Part shown: positions 1,052 through 58,438 of the stretch, in pieces
Numbering within the stretch: the first letter of the stretch is position 1
How the letters are laid out: each line of letters opens with the position of its first letter
Source: Eledone cirrhosa
Lineage: Eukaryota
DNA: 64,000 bases
Reading direction: 5' to 3'
Assembly: GCA_964016885.1 (NCBI GenBank)
Contig: OZ024743.1
Location: 275,218,001 to 275,282,000 of the forward strand
Notes under the pieces: model-generated
Database searches by the model: none
What the model was told of the DNA's origin: nothing
Seen by the model: only the letters and a program-made list of their open reading frames with translations
Translations under genes and position numbers: made by a program

Positions 1052-1353
1052 ATTTTCACTCTGTTTTTACAATTGTTTATATCATCAATCAACACATACA
1101 TATTGGTTATGACTCCTTCTACATTTCGATTACATTGAGTTCTTCATACGTATTTCACACTACTGCTCATTTCGGTAGAGTGATTGTGATAAAATATTTT
1201 CCTTTATTTTCACTCTGTTTTTACAATTGTTTATATCATCAATCAACACATACATATTGGTTATGACTCCTTCTACATTTCGATTACATTGAGTTCTTCA
1301 TACGTATTTCACACTACTTCTCATTTCGGTAGAGTGATTGTGATAAAATATTT
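1052..1353. repeat. About 155-bp tandem duplication immediately upstream of the RepHel ATG
   Basis: ATTTTCACTCTGTTTTTACAATTG...GATAAAATATTTT occurs twice, nearly identical. Confidence 0.9.
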
Positions 1354-1364
1354 TCTATTCAATT

Positions 1365-4300
1365 ATGCCTCCCAAACGACGAGCGATTGGTCAATCTACC
1401 CCTCAAGCAACGAAAAAATATGCATTACGAGCTTCAGAAACATACGAGCAACGGGAATCACGATTGGAAACCGTTCGAGTAAGAACTGCTCAAGCCCGTT
1501 CATCTGAAACAGACGAGCAACGGGAAGCAAGATTGCAAACCGTTCGAGTAAGAACTGCTCAAGCCCGTTCATCTGAAACAGACGAGCAACGGAAAGCAAG
1601 ATTGGAAACGAATCGACTACGCAATGCTCTCACAAGAAGAATACTGCACGATGATTTCAATCTTGGTGCATTTCATTACGATTCAAATTGTGATTACAGT
1701 CTTCATCCAAGTGTGATTATTGGAAAAATGGATAAATTATGCGGGTATTGTGGTGCCCTCAAATTTAAAAATGAAACACCAGGAATGTGCTGCTCGGGTG
1801 GAAAAGTGAAATTGCCAGAATTACATCCACCACCTGAACCATTATCAACGTTAGTATCAGGTGACACAAGCGAATCTAAACATTTCTTGGCAAACATACG
1901 CAAGTACAATTCATGTTTCCAAATGACATCGTTCGGTGCAACAAATATCGTGCGCGAGAATCACATGCCAACATTCAAAGTGCAAGGGCAAATTTATCAT
2001 CGTGCTGGAACACTACTACCACTGCCGGACGCAGATCACAAATTTCTTCAAATTTATTTCATGGGAAACACTGATGACCAAATAGATCAACGTTGCAAAT
2101 TCAATAGGGGAACTAAACGAGAAATTGTTACTGCATTACAAACTTTATTCAATCAACACAACAAATTAATTAGATTGTTCAGAGCTGCCCTGGAACAAAT
2201 GCCAAATGATGACTACACAATTGTAGTTAGAGCAGACAAAACACCTGTTGGCCAACATCAAAGACAGTACAATGCACCAACAATTGATGAAGTGGCGATC
2301 GTTATAGTAGGTGAAGAATTTAACTCGCGTGATATAATTCTTCACCGCAGAAATGGTGATGTTCAGCGAGTCTCAGAAACGCATCGGTCATACGATGGTT
2401 TGCAATATCCGATTTTATTTTGGCAAGGAGAAGATGGATATCATTTCAACATCAAACTGAGAAATCCAGAAACAGATGACGAAACGAATAAGAAAGTCAG
2501 TGCCATGAATTATTATTCATATAGATTAATGATTCGTGAAAACGGTGAAAATCATATTTTGAAATGTCGACAATTGTTCCATCAATACATTGTCGATATG
2601 TATGCACAAATCGAAACCGAACGACTTCTCTACATTCGATTGAATCAAACCAAGCTACGTTCAGAAGAGTACATTCATTTACGTGATGCCATTCTTAATG
2701 ATGGCAATATGAATCCTAATGAATTGGGGAAAATGGTCATACTGCCGGCTACATTTACAGGGAGCCCACGGCACATGCATGAATACGCACAAGATGCAAT
2801 GACATATGTTCGCGCATATGGCCGTCCAGATTTGTTCATTACATTCACATGCAATCCTACGTGGGATGAAATTAAAGAACTTTTGTTACCTGGTCAATCA
2901 TCTTCGGATCGTCATGATATTACAGCGCGTGTGTTCAAACAAAAATTGAAATCTTTAATCGATTTCATTGTCAAGCATCATGTTTTTGGAGAGACACGCT
3001 GTTGGATGTATTCCATTGAATGGCAAAAAAGAGGATTGCCACATGCACACATTTTGATTTGGTTGATTGAAAAAGTCACACCAGATCAAATTGATCAAAT
3101 CATCTCAGCAGAAATGCCAGATGTCGACGTTGATCCAGACTTATTTGAAGTCATCACTAAAAACATGATTCATGGTCCATGTGGCTTACTCAACAACAAT
3201 TCACCATGCATGTCTGATGGGAAATGCACGAAACAATACCCAAAAGACTTACTTGCCGACACTATCACTGGCAATGATGGATATCCACTCTATCGTCGAC
3301 GAGCAACTGAAGATGGCGGCAAATCCATCACTTTAAAAGTACGAAACAATTATGTTGAAGTCAATAATCGTTGGATTGTACCATATTCACCGTTACTCTC
3401 GAAGACGTTCAAAGCACACATCAATGTCGAGTATTGCAATTCGGTGAAAGCGATCAAGTACATTTGCAAATATATCAACAAAGGAAGCGATATGGCAGTC
3501 TTTGGAGTGTGCAATGCAACTACACCTATCGATGAAATCGACCAATACCAACTGGGACGCTACATTAGTAGTAATGAAGCAGTATGGCGCATTTTATCAT
3601 TTCCAATCCATCATCGACATCCAACAGTTGTTCATTTGGCGGTGCACCTTGAAAATGGACAGCGCGTATACTTCACAACTGAAAATGTACGTGCAAGGGC
3701 ACTGACACCACCGCCAACAACGTTAACTGCGTTTTTCTCATTGTGCAGCGAAGATGTGTTTGCAAAGACACTACTTTATTCTGAAGTGCCAACATATTAC
3801 ACATGGAATACACCAACGAAAAAGTTTAAACGTCGCAAACAGGGTAAAGTAGTTGAAGGACATCCAAATTTATATTCGACCGATGCGTTAGGCCGTTTGT
3901 ACACTGTTCACCCAAATAATGCAGAATGCTTTTATTTGCGATTGTTGTTAATTAACATACGTGGACCGACATCATTCCAAGAATTGAGAACAGTAAACGG
4001 TCAAGTATGTGCCACTTATCGTGAAGCTTGCCAAGAATTAAATCTTCTTGAAAATGATGGACATTGGGACACTTCACTCGCTGATGCATCGAATACTGCT
4101 CGACCACAGCAAATACGCACGTTATTCTCAATAATATTGACAACGTGCTTCCCATCAAATCCAAAAGATCTTTGGGAAAAATATAAAGACTACATGAGTG
4201 AAGACATCCTACATCGTTTGCGTGCAACAAATCAAAATATGAATATTCAATTCACACAAAATGTGTATAATGAAGCATTGGTTTCCATTGAGGTCATATG

Positions 4301-5815
4301 TTTAGCAATCGCTAACAAAACATTGGTACAATTGGAATGCCTGCGCCGAATCGATCTGTAAACGACATTTTCGATCGTGATTTGCAACGAGAAACAAACT
4401 TTGATGTCGCCGAATTGGGTACATTTGTTCAAACGAATCTTCCCAAATTGCTACCAGAACAACGCATAGTATATGACCAAATTATGCAGGCAATTATAAG
4501 TCAAAGCGGCGGATTGTATTTTATAGATGCGCCCGGTGGTACAGACAAAACTTTTCTCATTTCACTTATTTTGGCAACTATACGATCAGAAAATAATATT
4601 GCACTGGCAATCGCATCATCTGGAATTGCGGCAACTCTTTTAGATGGTGGCCGAACAGCACATTCAGCCCTGAAATTGCCATTGAATATGCAAATCGCTG
4701 AGACATCAACATGCAATATTACCAAAAATTCTGGTATAGGTAAAGTACTCCAATCATGTAAAATCATTATATGGGACGAATGTACTATGGCGCACAAAAC
4801 ATCATTGGAAGCGCTTAATAATACGCTAAAAGATTTGAAAGGAAATGAACAGCTCTTCGGTGGCACACTCATTTTATTGTCTGGTGATTTTCGACAAACT
4901 CTACCAGTTATACCGCGATCAACACCCGCTGATGAGCTTAATGGATGTCTCAAATCATCAGTTTTATGGCGACACGTACAGAAATTAACTTTAAAAAACA
5001 ATATGCGTGTACAACTACAAAATGACGCATCCGCTGAACGTTTCACAAAACAATTGCTGGATATTGGGAATGGGAAAATGGTAATCGATGATTCCACAAA
5101 ATGTATCACATTGCCAACAAACTTCTGTAGAATCACGGCAACCAGAGACGAACTGATTCACAAAGTGTTCCCAAATATTGCGCAGCATTACAAAAATCAT
5201 CAGTGGCTCAGTGTACGTGCTATATTAGCAGCCAAAAACACCGATGTCAATGCCATTAATTTCAGCATTTAAAACGAAATACCAGGCGAAGCGACAACGT
5301 ATAAGTCCATCGATACTGTAATGAATCAAGACGAAATTATCAATTATCCAATTGAATTCTTGAATTCACTTGATTTGCCAGGCATGCCACCGCACATTTT
5401 AACATTGAAAATTGGCGTGCCTATCATCCTTCTCCGAAACATCAATCCACCACAACTTTGCAACAGTACCAGACTTTCAGTGAAAAAGACGATGAACAAT
5501 ATCATCGAGGCTACAATTTTAAATGGAAAATTTAAAGGAGAAGATGTACTCTTGCCACGCATCCCAATCATTCCAACAGATACGCCATTCGATTTCAAAC
5601 GTTTGCAGTTTCCGGTGCGACTCGCCTTTGCAATGACTATCAACAAAGCACAAGGACAATCGCTACAAGTGTGTGGACTAAATTTAGAAAATCCATGCTT
5701 CTCACATGGACAGCTGTATGTGGCTTGCTCACGCGTCGGTAAACCTTCTGATTTATTCGTGTACGCACCAGAAGGAAAAACAAAAAACATTGTGTATCCA
5801 AAAGCACTTCAGTAA
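1365..5815 (+). pseudogene. Helitron Rep-helicase (HUH Y2 nuclease plus PIF1-family helicase), disrupted
   Basis: Zn motif CGYC..CC; Rep motifs PDLFITFTCNP, EWQKRGLPHAH and YICKY; helicase motifs APGGTDKT, DECTM, GDFRQ, TINKAQGQS and HGQLYVACSR. 1-bp frameshift near 4335 and in-frame TAA at 5270-5272. Confidence 0.95.
1437..1622 (+). repeat. 69-bp coding repeats giving 23-aa ETxEQRxxRL (STPR-type) repeats
   Basis: ETYEQRESRL.., ETDEQREARL.. and ETDEQRKARL at exact 23-aa spacing. Confidence 0.8.
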
Positions 5816-13737: not shown

Positions 13738-13803
13738 TATTTTATTATATATATTTCAAGGGCAACCAGGGCAAATTATGGTGCGCTTTCATCAGATAAA
13801 ATA
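13738..13803 (-). ncRNA. Minimal type I hammerhead ribozyme
   Basis: Reverse complement of 13867-13932. Confidence 0.7.
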
Positions 13804-13866
13804 CAGATTTGTTTTATAAATAAATATTGACATACCCGGAAAATATTTATTTATAAAACAAATCTG

Positions 13867-13932
13867 TATTTTATCTGATGAAAGCGCACCATAATTTGCC
13901 TTGGTTGCCCTTGAAATATATATAATAAAATA
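13867..13932 (+). ncRNA. Minimal type I hammerhead ribozyme
   Basis: TATTTTAT-CTGATGA-AAG...CTT-GAAA-tatata-TA-ATAAAATA; 8-bp stem I and palindromic stem III. Confidence 0.75.
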
Positions 13933-16935: not shown

Positions 16936-17298
16936 AAATTATTAGAAATGTAAGCTATCGCCGTATTTGAACTAAAGAAATTAAAGGAATTATTTAGCCT
17001 GATAGTGGGTTAAGAACCCTCGGAGAAATGGAAAAAGATGAATATTGACGTACATGAGAGTCGAACCCACATCTTTGGTTATCCGGGCCACTGTGATACC
17101 ATTTACACCAACACATGGTGTGTTGGTGTAAATGGTATCACAGTGGTCCGGATAACCAAAGATGTGGGTTCGACTCTCATGTACGTCAATATTCATCTTT
17201 TTCCATTTCTCCGAGGGTTCTTCACCCACTATCAGGCTAAATAATTCCTTTAATTTCTTTAGTCCAAATACGGCGATAGCTTACATTTCTAATAATTT
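16936..17298. mobile_element. Head-to-head palindrome of a tRNA-headed SINE-like element
   Basis: 180-bp arms with a 3-nt loop. A box TGGTGTAAATGG and B box GGTTCGACTC in the right arm (about 17124-17177). Confidence 0.8.
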
Positions 17299-17353: not shown

Positions 17354-17411
17354 TCCATTTACCAGTGGTTTCTTAAAAGCAAAAAAATTTGCTTTCAATC
17401 ATCAGAATGAA
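17354..17411 (-). ncRNA. Type I hammerhead ribozyme
   Basis: TTCATT-CTGATGA-11-bp stem II-GAAA-ccactgg-TA-AATGGA. Confidence 0.85.
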
Positions 17412-28166: not shown

Positions 28167-28233
28167 TATTTTATTATACATATTTCAGAGGTACTGAGCT
28201 ATCTTCAACAGTACGTCCTCATCAGATAAAATA
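28167..28233 (-). ncRNA. Minimal type I hammerhead ribozyme
   Basis: TATTTTAT-CTGATGA-ggacGTACTG..CAGTACctct-GAAA-tatgta-TA-ATAAAATA. Confidence 0.75.
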
Positions 28234-30296: not shown

Positions 30297-30990
30297 TCAA
30301 TGTTTTTTCCTGACTTTTTGCGAGGCTTGGAATGTAGAAGAAGCTTTATGTAGGCAATTTGAGAATAATTCACTTTTTTTGTTAATTAAATTTTCATAAT
30401 TAGTAATTATTAATAGGGTCTCCATAGTACAAAGATTGCAGTTAGGTGATATTGAAGAATTCAAGAGCTTTGACCAAGAAATCGAGTATTTTAAATTTTT
30501 GTCTTTTAATGACCATATAAGTTGTGATAAATAAGTCGAAGATTTCCTATTAGGATTCGAAAAAGAACATTTGTGATTCGAAAATCTTAATTTAAATGTC
30601 GATGAAGTTGCACCAAGTTGATGAAGTTGCACCAAGTTGTATGTGATGTTATTTGCTTTTACGGACCAGATTGCTATCCAGACAATTATTTTGCAGAGGG
30701 CAATTTGATCTATTTCTATAATTACATTTCGATTTATTGTTATTACTATAAATTGGACAATTGACATTAACATTGCTAGTACTTTGAAGTGTTCTATTGA
30801 TAGTGCTTAGATTAATGTTATTGTTATTCCTAGTATTGATATTGCTAGTGCTATTATATTCATTATCCCTAATTGTTTGTTGGTTATGATTTAGAATTCT
30901 ACTATTTATTTTTGCAATTTTATGGGCCATATTCATAGTTGTAGAATAAGAAAGCTTAATTGTGTGTCGGTTAAATATGGAACGGTATTT
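30297..30990 (-). pseudogene. PLE C-terminal GIY-YIG-type endonuclease remnant
   Basis: [52 protein letters not shown] and NKKSELFSNCLH. Frameshifted. Confidence 0.8.
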
Positions 30991-42427: not shown

Positions 42428-43028
42428 TTATACTTCTCTTAGGTCAGTGTTGTTTGTTTGGGTGTTGTTGTTGTTCCACTCATTCTTTCTGTTTAGCTTT
42501 GGTCTTCTAATTTCTATTTCACTGGCCTCTCTGATTTGCCTATCTGCTGGGTCATTCCTATGTTTAGATATTATTCTAATTTCTATGTTGTCTATGTTAC
42601 CGTCATGATGTTGTCTAGCATGTTCGTATAGTACTGACCCGTTTTTTCGTCCTTTTAGTTCCCCCCAGTGTTGGTCTATCCTTTCACCTATGCTACGAGC
42701 TGTCTCACCTATGTATGTTGTTGTCGTGTTTCTGCAAGTACCCTCTGTACATCTTATGCTATAGACTACGTTTCTAGTTTTACAGTTTATCCGGGGGTTC
42801 ACCTTACATATGATACATTTCCTATTGGTACAGTGGGTTTTCTTAAAAGGGTAGGTTTTGCTGATCAGGGATTTTATGGTGGTTCCTGGCTTTTCTACCA
42901 CCTTTATTTTTAAGTGGGTCTTTCTCAGGGCCTTTCTACACTGGTTAGCTAATTTCCCTCCAGGGGTGGCGTCCACAAACATGACACTCTGATATCTCTG
43001 GTTGTCGTACCATGATGTGGCCTTCCCT
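42428..43028 (-). CDS. PLE ORF C-terminus: Cys-rich linker plus GIY-YIG endonuclease, open up to the assembly gap
   Basis: C..CIIC..C..NVVYSIRC..C..YIGETARSIGER..H..RQIREA..LNRKNEW; no stops in the visible part. Confidence 0.85.
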
Positions 43029-43228
43029 NNNNNNNNNNNNNNNNNNNNNNNNNNNNNNNNNNNNNNNNNNNNNNNNNNNNNNNNNNNNNNNNNNNNNNNN
43101 NNNNNNNNNNNNNNNNNNNNNNNNNNNNNNNNNNNNNNNNNNNNNNNNNNNNNNNNNNNNNNNNNNNNNNNNNNNNNNNNNNNNNNNNNNNNNNNNNNNN
43201 NNNNNNNNNNNNNNNNNNNNNNNNNNNN
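43029..43228. other. Assembly gap (200 N)
   Basis: Run of N. Confidence 1.
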
Positions 43229-43964
43229 TATATCAAGAGGAACTTTCTAGATACAGCTCCATGGTCTCTGAAAACAAAAACACAAGAAATGTACCAATGT
43301 TAATTTTGTTAATGTATACAAAAAGTAAACGGAAACAACAAAGCAAACAACACGACACAATGAATAAATGTATTAGTTTAACACTTGATATAGTAGGAAA
43401 AGGGCGTTACGTTTTGAACACTAGTCCTTCATCAGAAGCTAGAATGAGAAATAAAAGATCAAATATAAAGATAGCGAGTGAGGAGAGAAAGGATGGGAAA
43501 ACTTTTTTAGAAAAATGTACGTGTATTTATCTGGCCATTTTAGAGGAACCTTTCATTGGTATATTTCTAATATAATTGTCAACAAATTTTGAAAACAATG
43601 AAGAATTTTGCGGGATTTAGTAATATTACTAACTTTCTCGTTATTAATCTGGTTCTTAAATAAATTTATGACCGGAAGTTTTTTTATGTAAATATAAAGA
43701 GTTTAAAAATAAACAACGTTGTATCGTAGAACCAAGGCAGTTTCAAGTGGTTTTTGTGTCAAAATAGTTAAATTTAAGGCGGGGGAGGGGGTATTTTTGT
43801 ACTTAAACATATTTTTTAAAGTTCACATGAGATTATTGATTTTGCAAAAATGAAGTCACGAAGGTAAAAAATTTGGAATCTCCTGTTTCGTTGATAATGC
43901 TTTATCGAACTAATTAGTTTTATTACCTTGTATTTACCTTCTGAGTGTAGAAAGGTAGGTAGCA

Positions 43965-50089: not shown

Positions 50090-50155
50090 TATTTTATCTG
50101 ATGAGGACGTACTGATGAAACAGCTCAGTACCTCTGAAATATATATAATAAAATA
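50090..50155 (+). ncRNA. Minimal type I hammerhead ribozyme within fold-back insert 49971-50297
   Basis: TATTTTAT-CTGATGA-..GTACTGA/TCAGTAC..-GAAA-tatata-TA-ATAAAATA. Confidence 0.75.
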
Positions 50156-50589: not shown

Positions 50590-51255
50590 TATAAATTATG
50601 TCCATAGAATCATTTGATAAAATATATACATTATTTCCTCTCCCAATCAGCATAATTAACCACACAAAAAACCAATTAAACCAGGCTATAAGATTAAAAG
50701 GCACCTATGAAGAAATAATAGATAAATAAACGACAGCCATCTATTCGCGATCAACAGCTATAAAATATTTACCCAGCATTTCAATAGCACGTGGAAATCG
50801 ATTAAATATATCGTCAACCATACACAATTAAGTATAAAATTAAAGTTAGAAGAAAAAATGCATATAAACATACCAGGATTACGTTTCTACTCTTTAGGGT
50901 TTCATTCGCTTTTGGAAATATCCGATCAAGGATAAATTTCCGAGCTTCGAAATCATCAGGAAACAAACTCACTTGGACGAAGATTTTTCTGACTACTACT
51001 ACTGACGTGAGAATGAATACACAATACTGAAGGAGAGTTTAAATATTCTTTATTATGGTGTTGAATCGTGTTGCTCTGGAGTTTCACCTGTGTACTCACA
51101 GGATCATCAGACAAGACCATGATCTTGTAAGTTTGTAGGTGAAACTCCAGACTGGCACTACTCATCCTTTTGTCATAATAAAGTATATATATATACAACA
51201 CCATAATAAAGAATATTTAAACTCTCCTTCGTTATTGTGCATTCATTCTCACGTC

Positions 51256-52424: not shown

Positions 52425-52869
<445 letters not shown>

Positions 52870-52921: not shown

Positions 52922-52973
<52 letters not shown>

Positions 52974-52980
<7 letters not shown>

Positions 52981-53642
52981 CAAATAACGAAACGAAATTA
53001 AATTTCGTTTCGTTTGTAACTCACTTTTGTATGACTGACGCTTAAACAATTAAGTTAAAAATGTACATCTACATATGCATACTGAAATACTAGTATGCAT
53101 ATGAATACACACACGTATACATATGTAGATGTACCAAGTCTTTCACTGGTTACTTTACTGTGAGTATCCAGCTATTCTGTATGTAAACACACAGACAAAC
53201 CGGTTTTTAGAGTCATACTGGTTTTTGATGAAACACCTTTCCTCTATTCTCCAGAAAGCCAGACAAGGAATATTGAACTAGTTTCGTTGTTGTTACAACT
53301 CATCAGCAATATTTACCTATCTACCGGCCTTTCTGGAGAATCGTAAAAGCACATATCGTTATATGCTTTTTCTATGAAAATTAGTAGTGGGCAGACTAAT
53401 TTGCATAGAGTGTGAGTACGTACCGGTTCAACGGAGACGATAAAAACAAATAACGAAACGAAATTAAATTTCGTTTCGTTTGTAACTCACTTTTGTATGA
53501 CTGACGCTTAAACAATTAAGTTAAAAATGTACATCTACATATGCATACTGAAATACTAGTATGCATATGAATACACACACGTATACATATGTAGATGTAC
53601 CAAGTCTTTCACTGGTTACTTTACTGGATACTCACAGTAAAG

Positions 53643-53646
<4 letters not shown>
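52974..53646 (-). mobile_element. Retrozyme-like element: 466-bp unit, 187-bp terminal redundancy, one HHR
   Basis: 52974-53160 equals 53440-53626; short terminal inversion; (TA)n flanks. Confidence 0.75.
53269..53313 (-). ncRNA. Minimal type I hammerhead ribozyme
   Basis: AATATTG-CTGATGA-GTTG/CAAC-GAAA-ctag-TT-CAATATT; 7-bp perfect stem I. Confidence 0.85.
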
Positions 53647-53720
<74 letters not shown>

Positions 53721-54155: not shown

Positions 54156-54467
54156 TATTGTTTCTGGGTATCACCAACTCTGAGAGTTTGGCAGGTGAAC
54201 AGTGAGCTGTACTGATGAAGGGTGATACCCGAAAACATTAGTGTCTGCAGTTCTCTTCGCATGCCAACACAAGAGCAAGAATGAAGTGTTCATTCTACTG
54301 ACATGGCTATAAAATTGAGGCTTGTTTGCATAATTGCAAACGAATCGAATGTTATTATTAATATTCGAAAAACTCAGATTATATATATATATATAAGGTA
54401 AACAGAAATAACAACACAATCGGTACAGTATATGGAAGGGTTAACGCTTGATATAGCAGGAAGAGGG

Positions 54468-54502
54468 TCTTAACGTTTCGGACGCTAGTCCTTCATCAGA
54501 AA
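54468..54502 (-). ncRNA. Minimal hammerhead motif in the 3' tail of the adjacent PLE; degenerate copy at about 43407-43437
   Basis: CTGATGA-a-GGAC-tagc-GTCC-GAAACGTTA; weak stem I. Confidence 0.7.
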
Positions 54503-54782
54503 AAAGAATGAGAAATAAGATAGATTGAGGGGACGGGCGGATTGGAATTGGAAAAAATGTCTTTAGATAAAAATAACAGGTCCATGTTGACATCTCTTGC
54601 AAAACTGTTGGTGCTGGCGTCTTGTGTATGATTTATATTTTAGAAACGTGGATGATGGAGTGCGTCTACCTGAAATGGAAAAAAAACATTTTGTAAAAAG
54701 AGCCATACTTGTGCACGTGCGTAAACATGTGTGTGTGTGTGTGTGCGTGTGTGTTATTATATCCGTACGAAGCTAAGAAGAA

Positions 54783-54947
<165 letters not shown>

Positions 54948-55144
54948 AGTAAAAGAGTGTGTGCATGTAAGTACGAAGCTATGAGCAAAAGTATGTTAAT
55001 ATAAGGGTGCGTATGTGTGTATACAGACCAGTGAAGGGAAAAGTGGAGTGAGCATATATAGTCGGCATGTATTAGTTTTAAGAGAAGATGTTAATGATCA
55101 AGAGAAAGCGATAGGAATCTAGGGGTGTGATAATGCACGGGGTA

Positions 55145-55988
55145 TTAGAGAAATTGGGGAGGTGAGTTGAGTCCAAGAGGGGAATAGGACCCAAGGCGGT
55201 GAATCAGACTTTGTTCAGTCCTGGTGCGCGAGTACTGTGATCCATGATGTAAAAGGACACCCAGGACTGAAACATGTAGGGAAGACTGGCCAGGAGAACA
55301 GAAATGACGGGCGACAGGAGTATCTAAACCGAGTCGTATGTCCCTCGAATGTTCGGCAAAACGGTCCGCCATACGGCGCTTAAAAGCAGTAATGGGTGAG
55401 TTTGGAAAAAAGCGAGAAGTGACGGGGTCAGAAGAGAGGATACGGAAGGAACGGAGGATATGTCGCCGGAGTGGTAGTGTGATGGGGTGGTAGGTGAGAG
55501 GGAAAGGAACACGGGTGTTGGGAGGGCGGGAGGTGAGGTGAGAGGGCTGTGGTGCGGTCTGTTTCACGGGCGCGGGTGAGAGCAACTTGGATCAGGGTGG
55601 GGAGATATCCACGCTGGATGAAACAGGAAGCCATGCAAAGGTAATGAGTTTCGAAATCGTCGTCCTGGCTACAGAGCCGAGGAAGACAGAGGAATTGGGA
55701 ATAGGGTATGGAGTGTTTGGTGTAGGTTGGATGGGAGGAGGTGAAGTCGAGGTAAGATTGGGAGTCTGTTGGTTTAATGAAGATGGAAGTAGAGAGGGTG
55801 TGGTGAGAGTGATTAATAGATAGAGAGATATCTAGAAAAGCGACAGAAGAATCGGAGACGGAGGCGGTGAAATTGAGAGCAGGGTGGAAAGATTGGACAA
55901 AAGAAAGAAAACAGTCAAGCTGTTCTCGTGATAGAGAGGTGGCGCCGATGCAGTCGTCGATATAACGACCGTATAGATCAGGAGACAA
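55145..55988 (-). pseudogene. PLE (Neptune-like) RT thumb plus internally deleted endonuclease
   Basis: RYIDDC, FLDISL, KPTDSQSYL..SSHP..SIPYSQF, RGY, LTYHP, RFAEH, PVARHF and PLGLN. Frameshifted. Confidence 0.9.
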
Positions 55989-56164
55989 ACGTTCCTGGCT
56001 TTGGATAAAAGAAAATACAGGAGGATCAGTTAATTAAGATTTTATTCAACATATTCCCCTCTCAAATTCACACACTTATTGCAGCGGTCCTACCTGCCCT
56101 GTAAAGGTAACAGTTCTAATCTTTCGCGAGACCCTTAAGCCGGGAACTTTTCAGCATTCCTGTA
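55989..56164 (-). mobile_element. mariner-derived short element
   Basis: GTTCCTGGCTT / AAGCCGGGAAC inverted ends; minus-strand KCVNLRGEYVE* resembles a mariner C-terminus. Confidence 0.65.
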
Positions 56165-57841: not shown

Positions 57842-57919
57842 TTCTCTGATGATCTTTGTTTTTCCCTTAATATCCATGTGATATCTAATGTTTTGCAAAG
57901 TGAAACTGTACAGTAAGGG
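57842..57919 (+). ncRNA. Type I hammerhead ribozyme, copy 1
   Basis: TTCT-CTGATGA-tCTTTG...CAAAGt-GAAA-ctgtacag-TA-AGGG. Confidence 0.75.
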
Positions 57920-58360: not shown

Positions 58361-58438
58361 TTCTCTGATGATCTTTGTTTTTCCATTAATATCCATGTGA
58401 TATCTAATGTTTTGCAAAGTGAAACTGTACAGTAAGGG
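58361..58438 (+). ncRNA. Type I hammerhead ribozyme, copy 2
   Basis: Same motif 519 bp downstream. Confidence 0.75.

Follow-up and report, generated by a model that had tools for sequence, protein, structure and literature searches.

A new hammerhead retrozyme family in Eledone cirrhosa with Penelope-like insertion anatomy and variants suggesting a circular RNA template

The window analysed here, a 64,000-nucleotide stretch of the Eledone cirrhosa genome (assembly GCA_964016885.1, contig OZ024743.1, positions 275,218,001 to 275,282,000), contains at 52974-53646 a young member of a new retrozyme family. The reading that we favour, at a probability of roughly 0.7, is that of a non-coding, hammerhead-bearing, non-LTR retrozyme whose circular monomer is copied by the enzyme of a Penelope-like element (PLE), through rolling-circle reverse transcription (RT) primed by both strands of a cut (TA)n microsatellite.

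The copy reads in RNA sense on the minus strand, from 53646 down to 52974, and is flanked on both sides by the (TA)n target, at 53647-53716 (5' flank in RNA sense) and 52924-52976 (3' flank), neither of which has a strand. It consists of a 653-nt direct arm and a 22-bp inverted arm. The direct arm holds a complete 466-nt unit (52974-53439, minus strand), numbered q1-466 in RNA sense by subtracting the window coordinate from 53440, and a second, 5'-truncated unit (53440-53626, minus strand; q280-466) identical to the first. The resulting 187-bp direct repeat (52974-53160 and 53440-53626) has a period of 466 and is 100% identical, as an earlier reading made from the letters of the window (the sequence-only reading) had judged. 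That reading had also seen the 22-bp terminal inversion (53624-53645, plus strand; q269-290), which overlaps the direct arm by 3 nt and forms the 5' end in RNA sense; this arm is atypical, most copies starting theirs at q392-397. Position 52974 is q466, a "long" fixed 3' end and putative first RT start. A "short" fixed 3' end at q392-397, lying in a small AU hairpin (53043-53048, minus strand) and a putative second start, is internal in the focal copy, and the "tail" between the two (q398-466; 52974-53042, minus strand) has a hairpin at 52988-53014. The unit is low in GC (163 of 466 nt) and non-coding, with no stop-to-stop frame above 65 codons in the tandem array. The sequence-only reading had named attachment to a longer coding element as evidence against its own interpretation; no ORF with RT and GIY-YIG domains is joined to the 466-nt unit.

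The complete unit carries one type I hammerhead motif, on the minus strand (53269-53313), with a predicted cut at 53276/53275, after q164. The core CUGAUGA lies at 53306-53300, with a GUUG/CAAC stem II, GAAA, a 7-bp stem I, a 2-bp stem III within the palindrome ACUAGU, and a GUU triplet ending at 53276. An Rfam search of the focal element returned nothing at gathering level; the match to Hammerhead_HH9 (53253-53324, minus strand; E 1.1e-7) scores 38.6 bits, against a gathering score of 52. The linear fold of the minus strand has an energy of -156.8 kcal/mol and a z-score of -10.5 against shuffles (plus strand, -7.8). Circular folding gives -13.1 for the minus strand and -9.6 for the plus strand, none of 60 shuffles being equally good, and three control sequences gave circular z-scores of -0.8, -1.2 and -4.9. 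The one clean hammerhead and the high degree of structure reported earlier are thus both borne out, and the stem I extension (predicted, 53247-53340, minus strand; arms 53247-53258 and 53329-53340) and the hairpins then listed are present in the predicted fold. Calling that fold "viroid-like" was an overstatement, given one ribozyme polarity, a branched set of hairpins (66% paired, not rod-like) and thousands of DNA copies. The modelled stem I extension would keep both ends of a cut-to-cut monomer together.

The family is large. In this 3.0-Gb, microsatellite-rich genome, thousands of copies are dispersed as dimers to multimers. Among 522 candidates, the best 40 yielded 136 matches, most of them 97%–100% identical, and the closest, at 99%–100%, uphold the earlier claim of a recent insertion. 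Subfamilies are ~88%, 95%–97% and 99%–100% identical to the focal copy. The junction of the 3' end with (TA)n, searched as an exact pattern, has at least 2,236 matches (control 0), and the exact ribozyme motif of this family (family A) has 9,224 matches genome-wide; a looser ribozyme pattern, which also takes a sister family B, has 36,390. Family B, ~60% identical over the unit, has units of 420-520 nt, about three times as many ribozyme motifs as family A, an expandable internal (TA)n hairpin, and the same fold and two ends (L182-L200; L090:956-1477). One family A copy (L248; G000:C1:56501-62000) with the q392 end sits in (ATG)n and not (TA)n. Two identical 1,543-bp insertions ~17.7 kb apart (L065 and L066) represent either a segmental duplication or an assembly duplicate.

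Alignment of nine family A and six family B units from cut to cut yields a common fold in which stem I closes both ends. Double changes between A and B occur in 21 of 77 pairs, including 3/6 in stem I, 3/4 in stem II and 3/8 in a long-range helix around the short start site, counts that are inflated by relatedness and by taking the structure from the same alignment. Single folds of A and B units predict a helix spanning the long start site q466, so the RNA likely continues beyond q466 and priming would be internal.

Insertion anatomy was scored at 97 loci selected for the long end at q466 and taken in chromosome order, being the first 98 of 100 long-end places minus one duplicate; L017, L018, L023, L026, L030, L066 and L201 were dropped from counts as duplicate or overlapping. 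In 63 of the 97 insertions, (TA)n is followed by an inverted arm starting at q387-397, a direct arm ending at q466, and (TA)n again. The other 34 have a very short inverted arm (4), ran off the stretch (10) or are arranged otherwise (20). An inverted arm ending at q455 or beyond, which would give two long ends, occurs in 0 of 97. Loci chosen by ribozyme motif instead have the same two fixed ends, and the short-end pattern has 3,194 matches genome-wide with overlaps counted (control 9). The outer ends are therefore fixed, q466 on one side and q392-397 on the other, 69-74 nt apart. Inner ends are spread around the unit, with a 0-5 nt overlap at the join in 48 of 69 cases. The circle test proposed earlier, varied permutations among genomic copies, was for this reason mis-specified: variation is confined to the 5' ends, the 3' ends having two fixed internal positions. 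The associated claim that RT ran more than once round is supported.

Several further observations were set aside. The odd inverted arm of L102 proved to be a mutated q372-397, unique in the genome. An enrichment of inner ends at q361-440 on later rounds (22/52, 8.9 expected) carries no weight, the bin having been chosen post hoc and overlapping hairpins. The X1 contigs have loose (TA)n ends at both fixed sites (one at 53043), but may be from the source sample. A single 496-nt X4 contig (466+30, a closed-cycle shape) was left unused, as a tandem gives the same and the kind of run is unrecorded.

Multimers with an inversion and a (TA)n target are the known insertion signature of PLEs, which the sequence-only reading overlooked. 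As given in the accessible text of Craig et al. 2021, that signature comprises partial tandems, an inverted 5'-truncated arm, a tail and a microsatellite target. Frangieh et al. 2024 (PMC11167929) found two internal RT starts in vitro, with both DNA strands cut and extended; their Poseidon PLE used uncut RNA, and the hammerhead was not needed. Because the insertion anatomy matches in its tandem and inverted arms and its tail in (TA)n, the retrozyme was most likely mobilised by a PLE enzyme.

The window itself contains a broken PLE fragment (54400-56033, minus strand) with RT and endonuclease pieces and a minimal hammerhead downstream; Pfam did not recognise six PLE fragments from the window. 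One PLE fragment of the window led to two young autonomous families, PLE-A and PLE-B, with intact RT and GIY-YIG frames of 1,200-1,290 aa, whose insertions in (TA)n likewise consist of head-to-head arms and have two fixed ends separated by 43-60 nt. PLE-A has a 4,117-bp unit and a 1,210-aa frame (window 42428-43246, minus strand; for example G000:C1:307.33-307.35 Mb), and we take it to be Neptune-like from the cysteine motif ahead of GIY-YIG. Its full-length copies are tandem, in head-to-head arms, and very young, all 150 scored matches out of 38,380 candidates being 100% identical. PLE-B (L102:1947-3510; L212-L225) has frames of ~1,280 aa, a canonical hammerhead, and ends ~60 nt apart inside the ORF start. 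The partner search covered these two families and one older family seeded from window 30300-30620, which are part of the genome's PLE diversity. None of the three has ends in common with the retrozyme unit, and no sequence common to the unit and PLE-A or PLE-B was found beyond chance (best E 0.025 and 0.031). A 14-nt likeness between the tail hairpin and the long end of PLE-B falls short of significance (E 0.11), and a piece of PLE-A found at the 5' terminus of L067 was rejected as an RNA chimera because it mirrors a neighbouring insertion. Of 423 family A/B ribozymes in the 1.45 Mb covered, none has a PLE coding hit within 900 nt unless (TA)n intervenes.

Other elements of the window include a 153-bp perfect palindrome in (TA)n next to the focal copy (52523-52840). 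Its arms each carry a different type I hammerhead (52743-52797, plus strand; 52620-52566, minus strand), and its appearance suggests the inverted end of a separate PLE-type family. Many more hammerhead-like motifs, from several families and mostly close to (TA)n, lie at 13746-13924, 17360-17405, 28175-28225, 50098-50147, 50888-50959, 54470-54505, 57846-57915 and 58365-58434, those at 57846 and 58365 forming a 519-nt tandem. A Helitron-like Rep/helicase coding region with three long frames (1347-5815, plus strand) was recognised by eye, and a tRNA-like match (17117-17188, plus strand; Rfam, 34 bits) is possibly the head of a SINE.

We used private variants to ask what kind of template the enzyme would have read. 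At 122 loci, alleles present in at most three of the loci sampled were polarised by the eight nearest loci. Variants common to all units of an insertion (n=64) are strongly skewed on the ribozyme strand, with 34 A>G against 6 T>C (p 4e-6), or 23 against 4 when counted as distinct sites (p 1.5e-4). Variants in a single unit (n=337) have 34 A>G and 35 T>C, and partial variants (n=32) two of each, with a period of four in L034. No cluster of three or more A>G confined to a single unit occurs in the 122 loci. The A>G sites are modestly enriched after U (13/23 versus 49/149) and only one is preceded by G; a U-before, G-poor context fits the preference of ADAR. Paired positions are not enriched (16/23 versus 91/149). 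Some sites, namely q34, q38 and q39, are changed in several loci. In L074, five A>G lie within 18 nt; this cluster occurs four times in the 3-Gb genome, all in that insertion, once in the inverted arm and three times in the direct arm, and L074 is the single locus with a genome-unique haplotype spanning both arms. Seven changes called over q12-130 in L075 form a motif found three times in the genome, in one arm of one insertion. The third edited haplotype examined, that of L050, is not private, occurring in 69 units at seven loci as a sublineage, so some shared A>G are inherited; one array with this motif has 18 full units across its two arms, all of them identical. By comparison, private shared variants of PLE-A occur in both arms in 8 of 11 cases and lack the A>G bias (2/11).

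Since an edit marks a single RNA molecule, identical edits in every unit, with no single-unit excess, argue for one monomer read repeatedly, and the presence of the L074 edits in both arms argues that both primers used the same RNA. The start sites lie ~230 and ~300 nt downstream of the predicted cut, and read-through of the cut site is seen in 71/93 direct and 44/63 inverted arms. Inner (5') ends do not pile up at the cut (5 of 162 at q160-170, 3.8 expected), and the junction length is unchanged in 385 of 386 read-throughs, scored with a pattern that would miss disruptions greater than ~10 nt. Taken together, these data suggest that the template was one edited circular monomer per insertion, with both target strands priming rolling-circle RT. 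A closed circle would best explain the shared edits and the clean junction; jumping on a cut monomer, or an identically edited multimer, is possible. We give only even odds to a fuller claim: that A-to-I edits are molecule-level barcodes proving one covalently closed RNA circle, with both target strands primed by a Penelope-type enzyme for up to at least 20 rounds, the PLE tail being the primer offset and recruitment needing only the RNA fold and no sequence homology with the autonomous element.

In the cycle that we propose, tandem copies would be transcribed on the ribozyme strand. The hammerheads would cut, probably as dimers because stem III is a 2-bp palindrome, and the monomer would be ligated into a circle that is sometimes A-to-I edited. 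A PLE RT/GIY-YIG protein would then recognise the fold and nick both (TA)n strands. One strand would prime at q466 and its partner at q392-397, both on one RNA molecule, with each RT covering a variable distance and often several rounds. Repair would join the two cDNAs head-to-head through 0-5 nt of microhomology, and some arrays would afterwards change length by DNA duplication. This last process is visible: one locus (L034/L201, G000:C1:5.738-5.753 Mb) has an inverted arm of ~30 units with variants every four units, a higher-order repeat. Periodic and partial variants in some arrays show that some multimers were also made by DNA-level duplication, and long arrays alone were for that reason rejected as proof of rolling-circle copying.

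Such post-insertion duplication also makes room for a reading in which the same element and enzyme used an uncut linear multimeric transcript, the source arrays being homogeneous or homogenised later. A PLE assayed in vitro acted mainly on uncut RNA (PMC11167929), an edited haplotype can be inherited (L050), and hot spots such as q34, q38 and q39 could be edited alike in several units. Yet an edited multimer should leave unit-specific A>G, of which there is no excess (34 versus 35; 2 versus 2), and the genome-unique five-site cluster is in all four covering units of both arms. Inverted arms in the family, moreover, start from a fixed priming end of their own and hence did not arise by later DNA inversion. 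We consider this template unlikely; the sequence-only reading had allowed for a circular or a multimeric RNA, and the variant patterns favour the circular monomer and disfavour the linear multimer. A cut linear monomer, its ends paired by stem I and the RT jumping from the 5' to the 3' end at each round, would account for the shared edits equally well. It is nonetheless improbable in view of the absence of a 5'-end pile-up at the cut and of the read-throughs without length change, as end-to-end jumps usually leave added bases, as with the R2 RT.

Two other origins would dispense with a PLE copying a retrozyme circle. The unit could be a pseudo-LTR (pLTR) or truncated end of an undiscovered autonomous PLE, later amplified as satellite DNA, as only part of the PLE diversity was covered and as Xenopus retrozymes are often pLTR-homologous, with DNA-level amplification proposed (bioRxiv 2026.07.22.740005). 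This is difficult to square with units that follow one another head-to-tail with no gene between them (328 read-throughs of q466/q1), the lack of any PLE coding hit beside the 423 family A/B motifs without (TA)n in between, multimers with priming-type ends in both arms, and an RNA-strand A>G bias, which requires an RNA stage; its probability appears small. The element is also small, structured and ribozyme-bearing, and RNA replication has been suggested for retrozymes, so one might imagine a viroid-like RNA replicating from RNA to RNA and only occasionally captured in DNA. Single ribozyme polarity, a branched fold, thousands of copies in subfamilies 88%–100% identical with fixed PLE-type ends, and the lack of the T>C excess that minus-strand editing would leave make this scarcely credible. 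The 466-nt element is neither a viroid nor an autonomous PLE: it resembles hammerhead viroids and viroid-like RNAs in size, hammerhead and high structure, but differs in its one-polarity ribozyme, genomic DNA stage and retrotransposon-type ends.

Our preferred reading, a retrozyme circle copied by a PLE enzyme, places the family among known systems. As judged from its sequence, the element has the intact-core hammerhead, dispersed tandem copies, non-coding low GC and stable predicted fold of metazoan non-LTR retrozymes. In the accessible text of Cervera & de la Pena 2020 (PMC7229834), these too are low-GC, non-coding tandem units that pair strongly with themselves, carry one type I hammerhead with a short stem III and number thousands of copies in genomes that also contain PLEs; they measure 170-400 nt, as compared with 466 nt in Eledone. 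That text hypothesises PLE mobilisation and circle-templated tandem cDNA, and demonstrates the circles by northern, without genomic evidence for the circle as template; in the Eledone family, circles are a prediction from genomic sequence. It does not describe (TA)n targeting, head-to-head arms or two fixed starts, which the Eledone family has. Endonuclease-positive PLEs share the tandems, inverted arm, tail and two RT starts downstream of the hammerhead, going by PMC11167929 and the accessible text of Craig et al. 2021, whereas the Eledone unit has no ORF and no similarity to PLE-A or PLE-B; its tail is 69-74 nt, against the 30-40 nt given there for PLEs and 43-60 nt in PLE-A/B. For vertebrate non-LTR retrozymes, Li, Clavereau, Pollet (bioRxiv 10.64898/2026.07.22.740005) base the PLE link on co-occurrence and on homology to pLTRs, and describe local amplification of a satellite type. 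The Eledone unit falls within the 51-972 bp range of those retrozymes and also co-occurs with PLEs, but its PLE link comes from insertion anatomy, without detected pLTR homology, and its multimers appear to be made at insertion.

A circular RNA template was proposed for PLEs in 2014 (PMC4209133) and for retrozymes in 2020 (PMC7229834), going by the accessible text of both. Literature searched by title and abstract opening, outside subscription papers, Repbase/Dfam and supplements (where cephalopod examples and insertion maps are possible), held no earlier report of such edit evidence. What is new here is genomic evidence that points to the copying of a single molecule from two primers over several rounds, along with mapped start sites. 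With RNA-strand A>G recurring in all units of both arms, the family bears on the open point of the circular template, and the edit-barcode test should be usable on any retrozyme or PLE family with good assemblies. The family also ties a retrozyme to PLE machinery through insertion anatomy, and its compact RNA with mapped starts, together with young intact enzymes from the same genome, would be suited to direct assay.
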